From a virus (lineage: Duplodnaviria > Heunggongvirae > Uroviricota > Caudoviricetes): a DNA stretch of 5,325 bases. A program made the translations under genes and the position numbers. Shown here piece by piece: positions 1 to 5,325 of this stretch. Position 1 is the stretch's first letter. Each line of letters begins with the position of its first letter. The stretch is from IMG/VR virus record IMGVR_UViG_2660238230_000001, positions 1-5,325 of that record; one strand, written 5' to 3'. Under the pieces are notes generated by a model that searched no databases, was not told the DNA's origin, and saw only the letters and a list, made by a program, of their open reading frames with translations.

Positions 1-90
1 AGCCAGAGTAAATCCTGCTCACAAAAATTCGCCGGAGCGAACTCAACAAAATGCAGCGTATGTCCGGCAAAGGGGAGGGAGGTATGCGTA

Positions 91-219
91 GCCGGCTGCA
101 TTATTGGCCCGTGGGGGCTGCGACTGGTGACCGATGCCGAATCTATTCTGCACTTTGCCGAGATTGGGGTGGTGCTGATGCTGTTTATTATCGGCCTCGA
201 ACTCGATCCACAAAGGCTC
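91..219 (+). pseudogene. kefC: Internal fragment of kefC-like glutathione-regulated K+/H+ antiporter (N-terminal transmembrane region only, no start or stop)
   Basis: Plus-strand translation [43 protein letters not shown] matches the conserved N-terminal membrane segment of enterobacterial KefC as I recall it. Similarity stops abruptly on both sides (upstream reads ...GREVCV, downstream reads SRSSKRL). The six-frame ORF 127..585 fuses this fragment to antisense of phage gene R and is not a real gene. Confidence 0.6.
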
Positions 220-251
220 AGCCGGTCTTCAAAACGCTTAAACTCATTCAT
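220..251 (-). pseudogene. S: Probable 5' remnant (about 10 codons, [10 protein letters not shown]...) of P2-like tail completion / virion morphogenesis gene S, truncated at the junction with the kefC fragment
   Basis: ATG at 251-249 overlaps the last codon and stop of R (minus-strand ATGAATGA arrangement), the expected position for S in P2-like late operons. The frame stays open to the window edge only because it runs antisense through unrelated sequence. The S protein sequence itself was not recognised. Confidence 0.3.
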
Positions 252-711
252 CCCACTTGCTCACCAGTTCGCCATTGATATAAAGCTCCACCGGGCGGGT
301 GACCGGCTCCGGCGGCGGAGGTTCCGGGATATTCTTCACATGCAGCGCGCCGTCAACCTCACTGACCAGCGTGCGCTCGGTCAGCATCAGGCTGATGCTG
401 ATATCAAAGCTGCTGTCATTGTTGATGTCTGCATAAAACGTGAAGCCCTTTTTCTGGCCTTCGTCGGTGGTCATGATGTCGGGCTGATTTTCCCGCAGCC
501 ACGCCAGCACCGGCACAATGAGCAGGTCAAAATCACCGGTAAAGTCGGTCACAATCACATTGAGCGTGTAACGCTTTTCGAATGACATAGACGTCGCCAG
601 TGTGGAGGCAATACTCCCGTTATCCACGAATATCCGCAGCATCTCGGGACTGGTTTTCAGCACCGTGACGGCGTCAGTCAGCGCCCTGCGCAGGCTGTCG
701 GGTTTGAGCAT
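244..711 (-). CDS. R: P2-like tail completion protein R
   Basis: 155 aa ORF ([19 protein letters not shown]...[14 protein letters not shown]) matching my recollection of the phage P2 gpR family in length and sequence. ATG at 711-709 with AGGA about 8 nt upstream. Position immediately after lysB/lysC as in P2. Confidence 0.8.
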
Positions 712-964
712 CGTTTTCGTCCTGACAGTGTTTAATCATTTTTACCTGGCTGGCACAGCGTGCCAGCGCGTTCTCAAGCTGCCGGATATCAGCACTTAAA
801 TCGCCGTTCGTCTGCGGGTCACTGCCCGGCATCGGGCAAAGGCTCACTTTCGGGCAGGCGTTGGCGACAATCACTGGCGTCAGTGCAGGTCGGACGCTGG
901 TGCAACCGGCGCACAGCATCAGGCAGGTCAGCGCCATACCAGCGGCGAAAATCCTCGTTTTCAT
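674..964 (-). CDS. lysC: o-spanin (Rz1-like outer-membrane lipoprotein), P2 LysC-like
   Basis: 96 aa ORF starting MKTRIFAAGMALTCLMLCAGC: signal peptide with lipobox-like LCAG|C. Starts inside lysB in a different frame and extends about 145 nt beyond the lysB stop (overlapped spanin architecture). GAGG about 9 nt upstream of ATG at 964-962. Its 3' end overlaps the R start by 38 nt. Confidence 0.7.
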   Translation of the reverse strand: MKTRIFAAGMALTCLMLCAGCTSVRPALTPVIVANACPKVSLCPMPGSDPQTNGDLSADIRQLENALARCASQVKMIKHCQDENDAQTRQPAQGAD

Positions 965-1244
965 TCAGTAACCTCGTGATGGTTTTCTCGCGCTGTGCTT
1001 CACGTTTCGCGGCGTTCTCCAGTTCCTGACGCAGTGCCACCTGCGCCAGCTCGTTTTTGTCTGCCCTGGTAAGGGCAACATGAAGCTGATTTTTCAGCAT
1101 GGTGATGGTCGTCTGCTGACCGCTGGCGACGTTGTTCGCCCTGTCCAGCGAGGCGCGCAGGCTGGCGTTTTCATGCTTCGCCAGAAACAGACCTGTCACC
1201 GCCAGCGATAACAACACGACCAGCACAATCATCAGCTTTGACAT
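819..1244 (-). CDS. lysB: i-spanin (Rz-like inner-membrane spanin component), P2 LysB-like
   Basis: 141 aa ORF with an N-terminal transmembrane helix (MSKLMIVLVVLLSLAVTGLFLA) followed by a charged, coiled-coil-like periplasmic region. Contains the lysC start in another frame. ATG at 1244-1242 with a GAGGGG run upstream. Confidence 0.7.
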   Translation of the reverse strand: MSKLMIVLVVLLSLAVTGLFLAKHENASLRASLDRANNVASGQQTTITMLKNQLHVALTRADKNELAQVALRQELENAAKREAQREKTITRLLNENEDFRRWYGADLPDAVRRLHQRPTCTDASDCRQRLPESEPLPDAGQ

Positions 1245-1657
1245 GGTTCCCGCCCCTCAAGACGCTGACGACAGGCCGTACGTATCAGCCGGAAAAACAG
1301 CGACGCCACAAGATAAATCAGCGCGGTAAAAATCCACCCGGCAGCGACCAGCGAGATAAACGTCGCCACCATCACCACCAGACCCACCGCCCGTCTGCAC
1401 CACGTCACCGGCTGCAAAAACAGCGACGTGACAATCTTCACAGCCAGCGATTCCGGCGGCAGCTCCCGCCCGTAGCGTTCCAGCACATACTCAGTGGCAT
1501 ACACCCCGACACCACCGGCAACCGCACAGATAACCGTCGCCAGAATCGCCCAGGCGGCGACAAAACTGACGGCCACGCTCTGCGGGTAAATCAGGGACAG
1601 TGCCAGCATCAGCGCCAGCGACACGTTCAGCATCAGTGAAAGGGATAATTTCTTCAT
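1232..1657 (-). CDS. lysA: Multi-pass membrane protein, P2 LysA-like lysis timing / regulatory protein
   Basis: 141 aa hydrophobic ORF with several predicted TM segments, located between endolysin K and lysB as in P2. ATG at 1657-1655 with GGAG upstream. 3' end overlaps the lysB start by 13 nt. Confidence 0.6.
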   Translation of the reverse strand: MKKLSLSLMLNVSLALMLALSLIYPQSVAVSFVAAWAILATVICAVAGGVGVYATEYVLERYGRELPPESLAVKIVTSLFLQPVTWCRRAVGLVVMVATFISLVAAGWIFTALIYLVASLFFRLIRTACRQRLEGREPCQS

Positions 1658-1671
1658 GGTGTTTACTCCGT

Positions 1672-2169
1672 TTAAGCCGGTACGCCGCCAGCGGTACGCC
1701 AGACGGTGACCAGTTTTTCCAGTGAATGCTCACGCTGACCGTAACCGGCACCCGGCAGGGACGCCCAGATATTGCGACAGCGTGAAATGGCGCGCTCAAT
1801 GCGTCCCGCCCGGATGTCATCCAGCGCACCGCGTTCGCGGATCAACTGAATGGCGAGTCTGTCCTGTGACAACGGACTGAAATCCGGCAGGGCAAGCTGT
1901 TTGCGGTAATGCGGCCAGAACAGGTAAAGCTGCTGATAGCGACCGGAGGCCGTGGATTTTTCACCGCGACGGTTAAACACCTTCGCCGGTCGGCCATGCG
2001 CGAACGGGTGGTCACTGTAGTCGGTGAAAATTTCCGGCTTCCCGTCCAGTCCGGTGACTATCACGTCATAGCCACGGTTTTTCGTCAGCGGATGGTTCGC
2101 CGTCCCTTCGGACACGGCCAGCATGTCGAGAAAGGCGGCGATATTCTGATGCGTGTTAATTACCGGCAT
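1672..2169 (-). CDS. K: Endolysin, lambda R / P2 K-type lytic transglycosylase (phage lysozyme family)
   Basis: 165 aa ORF with the hallmark motifs FLDML..SEGT, GYDVIV, FTDYSDHP, GRYQ, FSP.SQD and IWASLPGAGYGQ.EH shared with lambda R endolysin. Its ATG (2169-2167) overlaps the holin stop by 1 nt (TAATG on the minus strand). Confidence 0.9.
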   Translation of the reverse strand: MPVINTHQNIAAFLDMLAVSEGTANHPLTKNRGYDVIVTGLDGKPEIFTDYSDHPFAHGRPAKVFNRRGEKSTASGRYQQLYLFWPHYRKQLALPDFSPLSQDRLAIQLIRERGALDDIRAGRIERAISRCRNIWASLPGAGYGQREHSLEKLVTVWRTAGGVPA

Positions 2170-2450
2170 TACGGTTTCCCCCTGCCCTTAAAGCGGCGCT
2201 GAATGGCAATCTCAATCACCTGATAACCGGCGATACCCAGCATGGAGCCGATGCCGCACACCGCAGGCAATGACAGGTCAGGAAACTGCACCAGAACAAC
2301 ACCGGCAACCATCGAGACAAAACCACCGAGCAACATGCGTCCGATAAACAGACGCGGGGTGATGGGTTCACCACCGGCAAGCACCTTGCCGACAACAATC
2401 AGCACCCCAATCATGAAAAGCGACAGGACGCTTTTTTCTTCTGCTGTCAT
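2169..2450 (-). CDS. Y: Holin, P2 Y-like
   Basis: 93 aa small membrane protein with hydrophobic segments and a basic C-terminus (RRFKGRGKP), immediately upstream of and translationally coupled to the endolysin. GGGAG upstream of ATG at 2450-2448. Confidence 0.75.
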   Translation of the reverse strand: MTAEEKSVLSLFMIGVLIVVGKVLAGGEPITPRLFIGRMLLGGFVSMVAGVVLVQFPDLSLPAVCGIGSMLGIAGYQVIEIAIQRRFKGRGKP

Positions 2451-2453
2451 GCG

Positions 2454-2657
2454 TTACTCCCACAGATTGACAGTTTCAGCCACGGGCGCGGTCTGAACGT
2501 CGGGCAGTTCGACGGCGGTGCCGTGCGGCAGCACCGCGCCCAGTTCAGCCAGTCCCGGATTTGCGGCGAGCACGGCTTCGACCACGCCCTCAGTGCGCCC
2601 GTAATACCGGACACAAATGGCGTCGAGCGTGTCGCCCTGTAGCGCAAAGGTCTTCAT
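2454..2657 (-). CDS. X: P2-like tail protein X
   Basis: The six-frame ORF 2454..2726 has a plausible internal start giving a 67 aa product (MKTFALQGDTLDAICVRYYGRTEGVV...VNLWE), matching my recollection of the P2 gpX family. Its ATG (2657-2655) overlaps the L stop by 1 nt (TGATG on the minus strand). Confidence 0.75.
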   Translation of the reverse strand: MKTFALQGDTLDAICVRYYGRTEGVVEAVLAANPGLAELGAVLPHGTAVELPDVQTAPVAETVNLWE

Positions 2658-3166
2658 CAGATTTGACTCACGATGCAGCGTGGCTTGTCCTGGATGCGCG
2701 CCACTGCCCAGCGCATATCCCGCCACAGCTCATCAATGGTGCTGTCAATGCTGTCGGCCTTCTTGTCGCCTTTCGCACTGGCATCCACGCCGCGATAACG
2801 CTCATAAAGCGACGCGGTCGCCATCGCACACACGGCGCGCTCGTAGTAAAAAACTTTGATGCTTTCACCGTCGATGTCGTCCGCCGGGACGTCAGCCAGA
2901 CACGTAAAACCGGCGGCAATTTTCTGTTCGCGGTACTCGTACAGCTCCGCATTCGTTTCAGCCATGCCTGACTTGATGGCCTCACGCAGACGGGCAGGGG
3001 CGACGGTCTGCTCAAGGCGCATACGTTCCCGGACGCGCTTCGGGTCGATATCGGGAAAAAAGAACGTGTTTTTAATCACCGGCTCGTCGCCTGCCGGTTG
3101 CGGGATGACCACCGTACCCTCACCGGACACGGGAGCCTCCTTTCGCGGAATAATCAGCGTCATCAT
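2657..3166 (-). CDS. L: P2-like head completion/stabilization protein L
   Basis: The six-frame ORF 2657..3226 is trimmed to the ATG at 3166-3164, which has GAGG 6-9 nt upstream. This gives 169 aa (MMTLIIPRKEAPVSGEGTVVIP...PRCIVSQI), consistent with the P2 gpL family and position (M-L-X order). Confidence 0.8.
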   Translation of the reverse strand: MMTLIIPRKEAPVSGEGTVVIPQPAGDEPVIKNTFFFPDIDPKRVRERMRLEQTVAPARLREAIKSGMAETNAELYEYREQKIAAGFTCLADVPADDIDGESIKVFYYERAVCAMATASLYERYRGVDASAKGDKKADSIDSTIDELWRDMRWAVARIQDKPRCIVSQI

Positions 3167-3265
3167 GACTACCTCTGAAAAGTCGGGCGGTGGACGCCGG
3201 TACAGTGTCAGGTGATTCACCCTCACTGACCGGCGTGCCGCCCTGGCGCGGGGCGCATTCGGTTG

Positions 3266-4009
3266 TTAACTGGCTTTCTTTTTCGGGCGTCCACGTTTTG
3301 CCGGTGTCACGCTCCGGGTCTTACGCGGGGCGCAGGTGGCCGCTTTTGGCTGTGGCTCCGGCTTCGGTTTCAGCTCCCGCTCCAGTCGTTCAATCTCTTT
3401 TTTGACGCCTGCCTGACAGTCGAGCTGTGTCGCACGTTGCAGGTGCGCCAGCGCCCCTGCGGCATCACCAGCGTCACGCAGAAACAGACCGGTGATTTTG
3501 TGCAGCTTTGCGCGCACTTCATCAGGCATGTCAGCCGTGGCGGTCAGTTCGAGGGTGTCCGTCAGCAGGCGGGGATCCACAGACTCACCGGCAGCGTGGG
3601 CGCGCATGGCCGCGAGCGCCACCTCCTCGGTGAACATGTACGGCGGGGTGCGACGGTGTTTACCCGGCATGGTCAGACCGTACTTCAGGGCATAACGGGC
3701 AATCTCCAGCGCACCGGCAATATCGCCGGTATCCAGACGCCACAGCATGACCGTCATCAGAATGTCATCCTGTGCACCTTTGCCCTGCTCCAGCACGCCG
3801 TTCACCCACGGCAACCAGAACGGCAGCAGTTCGCGTTTTTTCGCGGCCTTCAGCTCTTTTGAATAAATTGCTTTCAGTGTGCGCTGGTCTGCGGCCAGCT
3901 TGACCAGCATCTGCTCATAGACAGTTGCATGTCGCAGCGGGGCGGCTTCCCGCTGCGCGGTCATCGCTGCCGAGACCCGCATCATGTGGCGCTGTGCGGG
4001 ACTCGTCAT
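3266..4009 (-). CDS. M: P2-like terminase small (endonuclease) subunit M
   Basis: 247 aa ORF with a basic C-terminal tail (KRGRPKKKAS), matching the P2 gpM family in size, sequence and position upstream of L. GGGAG about 8 nt upstream of ATG at 4009-4007, inside the end of the preceding N-like frame. Confidence 0.85.
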   Translation of the reverse strand: MTSPAQRHMMRVSAAMTAQREAAPLRHATVYEQMLVKLAADQRTLKAIYSKELKAAKKRELLPFWLPWVNGVLEQGKGAQDDILMTVMLWRLDTGDIAGALEIARYALKYGLTMPGKHRRTPPYMFTEEVALAAMRAHAAGESVDPRLLTDTLELTATADMPDEVRAKLHKITGLFLRDAGDAAGALAHLQRATQLDCQAGVKKEIERLERELKPKPEPQPKAATCAPRKTRSVTPAKRGRPKKKAS

Positions 4010-4012
4010 CGG

Positions 4013-4100
4013 TTACGCTCCCGGCTCTGCGGTCGCTTTAGCCGGTGTGGAGAAATCACCGACCTTAATTTTTTCCACCAGACAACCGGCGGCGTAGTCC
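4013..4100 (-). pseudogene. N: 3'-terminal remnant (about 28 codons plus stop) of a P2-like major capsid gene N, truncated at the junction with 16S rDNA
   Basis: Open minus-strand frame ...DYAAGCLVEKIKVGDFSTPAKATAEPGA ending at TAA (4015-4013), 3 nt before the M start, which is the expected position for N. Assigned by position; the peptide itself is not verified from memory. Confidence 0.4.
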
Positions 4101-4246
4101 TCCTCCATCAGGCAGTTTCCCAGACATTACTCACCCGTCCGCCACTCGTCAGCGAAGCAGCAAGCTGCTTCCTGTTACCGTTCGACTTGCATGTGTTAGG
4201 CCTGCCGCCAGCGTTCAATCTGAGCCATGATCAAACTCTTCAATTT
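4101..4246 (-). rRNA. rrs: 16S rRNA gene, 5' end only (about the first 146 nt), truncated
   Basis: Minus-strand sequence from 4246 reads AAATTGAAGAGTTTGATCATGGCTCAGATTGAACGCTGGCGGCAGGCCTAACACATGCAAGTCGAACGG...GGGAAACTGCCTGATGGAGG, the canonical enterobacterial 16S 5' end. Similarity stops near 4100, where GGGGATAACTACTGG is expected but phage sequence follows. Confidence 0.9.
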
Positions 4247-4377
4247 AAAAGTTTGATGCTCAAAGAATTAAACTTCGTAATGAATTACGTGTTCACTCTT
4301 GAGACTTGGTATTCATTTTTCGTCTTGCGACGTTAAGAATCCGTATCTTCGAGTGCCCACACAGATTGTCTGATAAA

Positions 4378-4390
4378 TTGTTAAAGAGCA
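4378..4390 (-). promoter_or_regulatory. rrn leader boxA antitermination element
   Basis: Minus-strand TGCTCTTTAACAA, the conserved rrn boxA motif, within the leader between the P2 promoter and the mature 16S 5' end. Confidence 0.7.
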
Positions 4391-4427
4391 GTGCCGCTTC
4401 GCTTTTTCTCAGCGGCGCGGGGTGTGC

Positions 4428-4455
4428 ATAATACGCTTTCCCGCTACAGAGTCAA
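4428..4455 (-). promoter_or_regulatory. rRNA operon P2 promoter (sigma70)
   Basis: Minus-strand -35 TTGACT (4455-4450) and -10 TATTAT (4433-4428) with a 16 nt spacer, matching the rrnB P2 context GCTTGACTCTGTAGCGGGAA.GCGTATTATGC. Confidence 0.75.
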
Positions 4456-4545
4456 GCATTTTTTTGCTTTTCTCTGTTGAGATTCTCAGGAGAACCCCGC
4501 TGACCCGGCGGCGTGTTTGCCGTTGTTCCGTGTCAGTGGTGGCGC

Positions 4546-4573
4546 ATTATAGGGAGTTATTCCGGCCTGACAA
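4546..4573 (-). promoter_or_regulatory. rRNA operon P1 promoter (sigma70)
   Basis: Minus-strand -35 TTGTCA (4573-4568) and -10 TATAAT (4551-4546) with a 16 nt spacer, followed by the GCGC discriminator. Matches rrnB P1 (CTCTTGTCAGGCCGGAATAACTCCCTATAATGCGCCACC). Confidence 0.8.
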
Positions 4574-4574
4574 G

Positions 4575-4598
4575 AGGAAATTTAAAATAATTTTCTGA
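4575..4598 (-). promoter_or_regulatory. UP element of rrn P1
   Basis: Minus-strand A/T-rich TCAGAAAATTATTTTAAATTTCCT immediately upstream of the P1 -35 hexamer, matching the classic rrnB P1 UP element. Confidence 0.7.
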
Positions 4599-4618
4599 CC
4601 GCGCAACATTCAACCAAA

Positions 4619-4711
4619 TCAACCTAAAACTGCCAGTTTTTCGAGCGTTCCGAAGCCGTAACGCTGTAAAACGGGCAATAATTGTTCAGCTTCTGTCGTC
4701 ATTGCCAGCAC
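4619..4711 (-). pseudogene. murI: 3' end (about 30 codons plus stop) of glutamate racemase gene murI
   Basis: Minus-strand translation ...[28 protein letters not shown] matches the MurI C-terminus, and murI is the natural upstream neighbour of rrsB. Similarity to MurI is lost above about 4711, so the six-frame ORF 4619..4915 is chimeric. Confidence 0.65.
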
Positions 4712-4820
4712 CAGCCCTTTTTTCAGATTGAACTCTTCGGCTTTAATGCCCATCTTGCGCTCTTTCAACTGCCCGGCTCGAGTTACAATCCCTACGCCAA
4801 TCAGCGCCACCAGAACGCCG

Positions 4821-4985
4821 CAGACCTTCGTTGTTGGCAAAGTTCGCCAGTACAATCTGCCCCAGCAGTTGGGTTTGTTCGTTGGAATAGTTGCCGACAA
4901 CCGTACCGTCATCATTGATTTGATAACTCACCAGATCGCCCGGTTTGTAGCCGTTCTGGGTGGTTGCCACAATATTGTTAGCGCC
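4821..4985 (-). pseudogene. flgE: Internal fragment (about 55 codons) of flagellar hook protein gene flgE
   Basis: Minus-strand translation [55 protein letters not shown] matches the C-proximal conserved region of enterobacterial FlgE. It has no start and no native C-terminus; flanking sequence on both sides is unrelated to FlgE. Confidence 0.65.
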
Positions 4986-5211
4986 TAGAGCAAACTGAAG
5001 GGGTAACCTAAGCCGAGGTTAATTAATAGCGACTGTAAAAAGTAGAACGCAGTCCACGTGCTAAATACCCGGCTACGGGTAACAAGCGATTCTTTGAGGG
5101 TTAAATTCATATGCCACTATCGTAACAAACGCCATGTGCTTACCCGGGCGTCAAGGGTCAATCCCTGCAAGAGTGCGTGAAGAGGGCACGCCGCACAGCC
5201 CGTCACGCTAC

Positions 5212-5325
5212 CTATTCGTCGATGATTGACTCGAATCCGCCATAGATCATTCGCTTGCCGTCAAACGGCATGGACTCGCCGAACTCTTTCATCCGTGGGT
5301 CCGACATCATCTTTTGATTAGCAGC
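5212..5325 (-). CDS. 3' end of an unidentified ORF running off the window edge (...AANQKMMSDPRMKEFGESMPFDGKRMIYGGFESIIDE*)
   Basis: Open minus-strand frame of 37 codons ending at TAG (5214-5212) with enterobacterial-like codon usage. Product not recognised. May be another fragment rather than an intact gene. Confidence 0.3.
   Translation of the reverse strand, partial: AANQKMMSDPRMKEFGESMPFDGKRMIYGGFESIIDE

Follow-up and report, generated by a model that had tools for sequence, protein, structure and literature searches.

P2-type prophages join the host chromosome at att sites beside int, not within the phage genes N or S. The late O operon of phage P2 runs in the order N-M-L-X-Y-K-lysA-lysB-lysC-R-S, and its Y, K, LysA and LysB/LysC products are the holin, endolysin, antiholin and Rz/Rz1 equivalents (PMC3091744). 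In the P2 record AF063097, the operon 'O, N, M, L, X, Y, K, lysA, lysB, R, S' has one annotated transcription start, and its only annotated terminator follows S. In a cell, the Ogr-activated late promoter ahead of O is the sole source of lysis-gene transcription, and it lies outside the window described here. The E. coli rrnB operon begins with a P1 promoter that has a TTGTCA-16-TATAAT core and a GC-rich discriminator; an A+T-rich UP element lies immediately upstream of this core. P2 stands about 120 nt downstream of P1 and is followed by boxB-boxA-boxC, by the mature 16S 5' end and by the remainder of a 16S-tRNA-23S-5S operon. [quoted passage not shown]

The window is the entire 5325-bp contig CDRN01001828.1. 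It carries the number 1828 in GCA_000944855.1, a highly fragmented draft with no fewer than 1,828 contigs. In it, rrnB promoters read into a P2-type lysis cassette. By searching 5,426 complete E. coli genomes with BLAST and aligning the window locally to the loci retrieved, we resolved it into eight E. coli pieces that account for all of it, with 0 bases unassigned and no filler (Table 1). The source loci, entD, kefC, a P2-like prophage, murI-rrnB, rhaT, flgE, opgE and ybaA, are dispersed around the chromosome. Five of the pieces are just 117-201 bp long, and the two at the contig ends measure 91 and 144 bp. From this context we judge the juxtaposition of rrnB promoters and lysis genes to be, very probably, the artefact of a chimeric contig that arose in sequencing or assembly.

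Table 1. Pieces, genes and signals of the 5325-bp window, with the identities or motifs by which they were recognized
Feature	Positions	Strand	Details
Piece 1, entD internal fragment	1-91	-	98.9% identity to entD, E. coli chromosomes
Piece 2, kefC internal fragment, 130 bp	89-218	+	98.5% identity to kefC
Piece 3, P2-family (Peduovirus) late-gene block S'-R-lysC-lysB-lysA-K-Y-X-L-M-N'	218-4107	-	
Piece 4, native rrnB upstream region, from the murI 3' end through promoters and leader to 16S nt 149	4098-4707	-	
Piece 5, rhaT internal fragment, 117 bp	4704-4820	-	98.3% identity
Piece 6, flgE internal fragment, 165 bp	4821-4985	-	100% identity
Piece 7, opgE 5' end and its upstream spacer	4986-5186	-	98.5% identity
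Piece 8, ybaA region, reaching the contig end	5182-5325	-	99.3% identity
R, tail completion protein, complete	244-711	-	155 aa, 149/155 identical to P2 gpR; Pfam P2_Phage_GpR
lysC, Rz1-like o-spanin	674-964	-	88/96 identical to P2 LysC; Pfam LysC
'putative transcription attenuator; O operon' (label in P2 record)	749-767	-	exact match to AF063097 8399-8417
lysB, Rz-like i-spanin	819-1244	-	134/141 identical to P2 LysB
lysA, antiholin-like lysis timing gene	1232-1657	-	131/141 identical to P2 LysA; Pfam LysA
K, endolysin	1672-2169	-	165/165 identical to P2 gpK; exact member of ENLYS_BPP2 UniRef entry
Y, holin	2169-2450	-	92/93 identical to P2 gpY; Pfam Phage_holin_3_2; GGGAG upstream of ATG
X, tail protein	2454-2657	-	66/67 identical to P2 gpX
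L, head completion protein	2657-3166	-	167/169 identical to P2 gpL
Strong RNA hairpin, M-L spacer	3185-3243	-	MFE -43.5 kcal/mol, z = -5.4, 0/200 shuffles fold as well
M, terminase endonuclease (small) subunit	3266-4009	-	247 aa, 242/247 identical to P2 gpM
N', last 95 nt of major capsid gene	4013-4107	-	cut at about codon 328/357; alignment to L010/L013
Junction J3, phage piece to 16S	4098-4107		exact phage match up to 4099; exact 16S match from 4102
16S rRNA, first 149 nt only	4098-4246	-	L001 annotation and motif AAATTGAAGAGTTTGATCATGGCTCAG at 4246-4220; nt 1 = 4246
rrn leader antitermination signal	4356-4416	-	boxB hairpin 4416-4393, boxA 4390-4378, boxC 4363-4356; exact motifs
rrnB P2 core promoter	4428-4455	-	TTGACT-16-TATTAT
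rrnB P1	4546-4596	-	UP element 4596-4575, -35 TTGTCA 4573-4568, 16-nt spacer, -10 TATAAT 4551-4546
murI 3' end, last ~29 codons	4619-4707	-	L001 annotation

How faithful is the rrn part of the contig to its model? Over 4098-4707 the contig agrees with E. coli chromosomes in 609 of the 610 bases of their murI-rrnB region (99.8%), and the annotation beneath this match, at the locus designated L001, reads '16S ribosomal RNA' and 'murI'. Because the match runs into the murI 3' end, the promoters can be assigned to rrnB among the seven rrn operons. Such agreement identifies the rrn elements, at the level of sequence, as those of the genuine rrnB region and no chance resemblance. All the named elements stand in native order and spacing: the P1 core with its GC-rich discriminator, the UP element directly upstream of it (AGAAAATTATTTTAAATTTCCT, an exact string match on the minus strand), P2 about 120 nt downstream, boxB, boxA (TGCTCTTTAACAA), boxC (TGTGTGGG) and the mature 16S 5' end. 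The P1 and UP element sequences used for matching are those that we take to be canonical. A sigma-70 consensus scan of the whole window returned just two promoter-like sites, P1 (4573-4546) and P2 (4455-4428). An earlier note on this DNA had described a P1 with UP element, a P2 and a boxA on the minus strand, all aimed at phage genes, and each of these is present where it had been placed or close to it. Unlike rrnB, no complete 16S-tRNA-23S-5S operon stands behind the promoters: the operon of the contig ends after 16S nt 149, is followed by phage DNA and lacks the rest of 16S as well as the spacer tRNAs, 23S and 5S.

Rfam yielded a single match in the window, to Ysr197 (RF02849, 'Yersinia sRNA 197'), at 4368-4620 on the minus strand (87.6 bits, E = 3e-20). 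The alignment runs from end to end of the model (1-254) over the E. coli rrnB P1-P2-boxBAC region, and its score is below the gathering score of 167. We rejected this match as an sRNA gene, since it does no more than overlie the rrn promoter and leader. The match suggests that the Ysr197 family models the rrn promoter and leader rather than an independent sRNA. Even at E <= 1, the same scan did not report the 149-nt 16S 5' fragment, though BLAST leaves no doubt of its identity; covariance-model screening can thus miss short pieces of rRNA at chimeric joins.

The phage block is equally recognizable. Its genes lie on the minus strand in the order N'-M-L-X-Y-K-lysA-lysB-lysC-R-S', co-oriented with P1 and P2, as the earlier note had read those from N' to R, and the order is that of the P2 late O operon, with protein identities from 92% (LysC) to 100% (K). 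The block shares 98.1% identity with Peduovirus P2 records and 99.82% with the prophages L010 and L013, with 0 mismatches over 302-4036. Since it matches natural prophages without a mismatch over that interval, we regard the phage piece as ordinary prophage DNA. It differs from L010 only at 283, 291, 301, 4037, 4052, 4100 and 4104, all near the block ends, and the first four of these carry the alleles of another natural prophage, L002. The nine complete genes M through R have P2 lengths, 0 internal stops and 92-100% identity to P2, and a Shine-Dalgarno-like site precedes most of them (M, L, Y, K, lysA and lysB among others). An inactivating mutation, which the earlier note had named as a finding that would undo its argument, was looked for in M through R, and none was found.

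The block is, in contrast to the P2 operon, without the Ogr-dependent P_O, gene O and the first 91% of N, and it is without almost all of S and the operon terminator annotated in AF063097. Transcription from an Ogr-activated P_O upstream of O, with termination after S, is accordingly not encoded within it. Of S only the first 11 codons remain (the block stops 34 nt into the gene). The flanks are the 16S fragment on one side and the 130-bp kefC fragment on the other, and the block ends inside N at codon 328 and S at codon 11, not at an att site beside int flanked by a duplicated core, as would be expected of site-specific integration. It is a fragment cut inside two genes, not the end of a prophage.

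Divergence from P2 is uneven along the lysis genes. K and Y (1672-2450) are identical to P2 at 165/165 and 92/93 residues, compared with 92-95% for lysA, lysB and lysC (674-1657). Against the relative L012 the window shows 52 differences, every one of them between 346 and 1442. Judged from these alignments, the lysA-lysC divergence looks like the mosaicism that recombination typically leaves in P2-like prophages, and its boundary would lie near where K meets lysA.

Does anything stop transcripts between the rrn promoters and the holin? The earlier note had seen no terminator there, and a consensus terminator scan of both strands over 3200-4700 bears this out, finding no site; nor was there any consensus terminator between the rrn promoters and Y/K. 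The first minus-strand terminator-like matches, at 1351, 1214 and 1098, lie inside lysA and lysB, past Y and K, and the number of such matches on this strand (6) is that expected by chance (6.1). The one strong candidate structure is the M-L spacer hairpin, which is followed by GACUUUUCAG (3184-3175) and narrowly misses the U-tract rule of the scan. The spacer is identical to P2 at 97 of 99 bases, and AF063097 carries no terminator annotation there. Because the hairpin sits inside the single O-to-S transcription unit of P2, it must be read through in normal late expression. We rejected the hairpin as a block to lysis-gene expression, given that it is native to this unit and that rrn antitermination suppresses intrinsic terminators (PMC6614801). 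The contig shares with P2 both this hairpin and the 'attenuator' sequence of lysC, which is situated downstream of Y, K, lysA and most of lysB. As modelled by folding, the M-L hairpin could be a partial terminator, or an RNA-stability or processing element, of the P2 late O operon; if so, it would set the ratio of head-gene to tail- and lysis-gene expression.

As a thought experiment, transcripts from P1 and P2 carrying the boxA signal would run through 16S' and N' into M-L-X-Y-K-lysABC. On paper, then, a real locus of this layout would express the lysis cassette, and it is reasonable to expect toxicity from a P1/P2-boxA locus that reads into intact lysis genes. The earlier note had argued that the junction is artefactual or engineered because such a locus should be lethal. 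The reasoning is supported, and its two outcomes fare differently. An artefactual origin agrees with the eight-piece mosaic, the seven non-homologous joins and the 0 independent copies of the arrangement, whereas an engineered one finds neither scars nor a plasmid in its favor.

There are seven joins, at 89-91, 218, 4098-4107, 4704-4707, 4820/4821, 4985/4986 and 5182-5186, all of them seamless and non-homologous, with exact overlaps of 3, 1, 2, 4, 0, 0 and 2 nt in that order. Pieces 1 and 2 share TAG (3 nt), pieces 2 and 3 share 1 nt, and pieces 4 and 5 share GCCA (4 nt); the flgE piece has 0 nt at either end, and the opgE and ybaA pieces have an exact overlap of 2 nt. At J3, where 16S runs in the same orientation into the last 95 nt of the capsid gene N, a 10-nt stretch resembles both sources, the phage at 8/10 positions and 16S at 9/10. 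With the sole exception of the opgE-ybaA join, which lies in the spacers upstream of both genes, the joins cut within a gene or rRNA: the cuts fall at nt 149 of 16S, codon 328 of N and codon 11 of S, and murI is reduced to about 29 codons. Restriction sites, linkers and adaptors, as would be left by a 3C/Hi-C-type or cloning origin, were sought at the seven joins; no common motif was found, and every base is E. coli sequence.

Overlaps of 0-4 nt are far too short for homologous recombination or for a k-mer-based false join. As they are far shorter than any assembler k-mer, the joins were presumably already in the sequenced molecules or reads. The microhomology totals 12 nt over the seven joins, compared with 4.7 nt expected for random blunt joins (P about 0.01), and this slight excess hints at microhomology-assisted template switching or end joining, not pure blunt ligation. 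In a cell, the rrnB region and the P2-family late-operon stretch would occupy separate chromosomal places; here they are laid end to end with six other fragments. Fragment-to-fragment ligation or template switching during library preparation may have produced the joins, and the very fragmented draft assembly would then have kept them.

Within the pieces the sequence is clean, and the trouble is confined to the joins. Differences inside the small pieces are mostly synonymous third-position changes, and the mismatches within pieces are natural polymorphisms, mostly synonymous or common to other natural alleles. Sequencing errors near the joins, considered as a mark of low-quality bridging reads, were dropped as an explanation on this account, four of the differences being L002 alleles and the changes in the small pieces being mostly synonymous. 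One open reading frame spans joins: a 98-aa ORF at 4619-4915 on the minus strand runs across three pieces (the murI tail, the rhaT fragment and the flgE fragment), was called as a gene and has a Pfam RhaT match. No other ORF spans joins, and in a collection of about 15 billion proteins this one stands as a singleton cluster; the chimeric contig has created a false protein.

No independent copy of the arrangement was detected. In none of the 5,426 complete E. coli genomes (0/5,426) does 80% or more of the window occur at a single place, a cut-off that a genome with the phage and rrnB pieces together would pass and be counted, as these two make up 84.5% of the window. The count is likewise 0 of 5,426 when this cut-off is applied to 4050-5325 or to 1-330. 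Among PLSDB plasmids, megablast found 0 that span 3900-4320, and the matches were to the rrn half only. In an exact scan, the 36-mer across J3 was absent from genome_contigs (185,579 species-representative genomes), viral_contigs (IMG/VR) and metagenome_contigs (JGI). We read 24 other contigs that encode the exact M protein, and in all of them it follows the capsid gene N in the normal P2-type layout.

The contig thus resembles other chimeric or misassembled draft contigs in its short non-adjacent pieces, its joins inside genes, its spurious ORF and its lack of support elsewhere: the pieces come from non-adjacent loci, and the joins are absent from independent genomes. It differs from repeat-induced misassemblies, which join at shared repeats, in that its overlaps are just 0-4 nt; we infer from these that the fault lies in chimeric library molecules, not in k-mer collapse. 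Two observations weigh against an artefact. The sequence shows no visible load of errors, such as very low coverage might leave in an artefact, and an excess of microhomology would also be expected from microhomology-mediated end joining inside cells. Could the molecule, then, be real? E. coli fragments may have been end-joined inside cells, for example in another host, where NHEJ/MMEJ concatenated genomic or carrier DNA and integrated it, or by rare alternative end joining in damaged E. coli, in which case the rrnB-phage junction would be physical and need not be expressed in growing E. coli. The seamless joins with 0-4 nt of microhomology, slightly in excess of blunt joining, are a signature of end joining, and the pieces do read as clean natural alleles. 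However, neither contig end carries DNA from outside E. coli, and seven joins in 5.3 kb, leaving fragments of 91-201 bp, would represent as many independent events. To our knowledge, E. coli lacks canonical NHEJ. An intact copy of murI, which is an essential gene, and of other cut genes would be needed elsewhere in the genome, and no collection searched offered a second example. We consider an origin of this kind unlikely.

A still smaller chance attaches to a stable natural rearrangement in an E. coli isolate, in which rrnB P1/P2 drive the P2-type lysis cassette and the cell tolerates it through an unseen block to expression. Orientation and clean sequence are as such a locus requires, and the M-L hairpin with its following UUUU could lower read-through; yet P2 itself, with its single start upstream of O, reads through this hairpin in late expression, and rrn antitermination would act against it. 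Moreover, Y, K, lysA, lysB and lysC are intact, with Shine-Dalgarno-like sites upstream of the first four, and the junction stands within a chain of six further unrelated joins and in 0 complete E. coli genomes, where a P2-type prophage would be expected to join at att beside int instead of in N or S. Just as improbable, in our estimation, is a junction that arose by illegitimate end joining and is real in a living E. coli, with an intact holin-endolysin-spanin cassette under rrnB P1/P2 and boxA and the cell surviving. Were this true, something as yet unknown would have to be blocking expression or holin triggering, such as the M-L hairpin acting as an efficient terminator outside its phage context. 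Promoter-lysis cassette fusions are made on purpose in biotechnology, and this precedent speaks for a deliberate construct, such as an autolysis cassette driven by an rrn promoter. Of all the origins considered we give this one the least credence: the fusion point falls inside 16S (nt 149) and the capsid gene N, 745 bp of the terminase gene M and other structural genes separate the promoter from the holin, and no join bears a restriction site, linker or vector sequence. In addition, 0 PLSDB plasmids carry the junction, and the flanks are random chromosomal scraps of 91-201 bp.

What does a chimeric contig of this kind teach us? It holds no new biology, as the rrnB P1-P2-boxBAC region and the P2 late-operon fragment are both textbook elements. 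Were the junction real, one would have to ask how a cell can tolerate having its strongest promoters in front of a lysis cassette, but the evidence speaks strongly against a real junction. The main value of the finding lies in quality control: chimeric joins make false gene neighborhoods and at least one false protein, the 98-aa ORF. Much of GCA_000944855.1 probably contains chimeric joins likewise, and whoever mines such drafts for promoter-gene adjacency, prophage insertion sites or 'novel' ORFs risks being misled.
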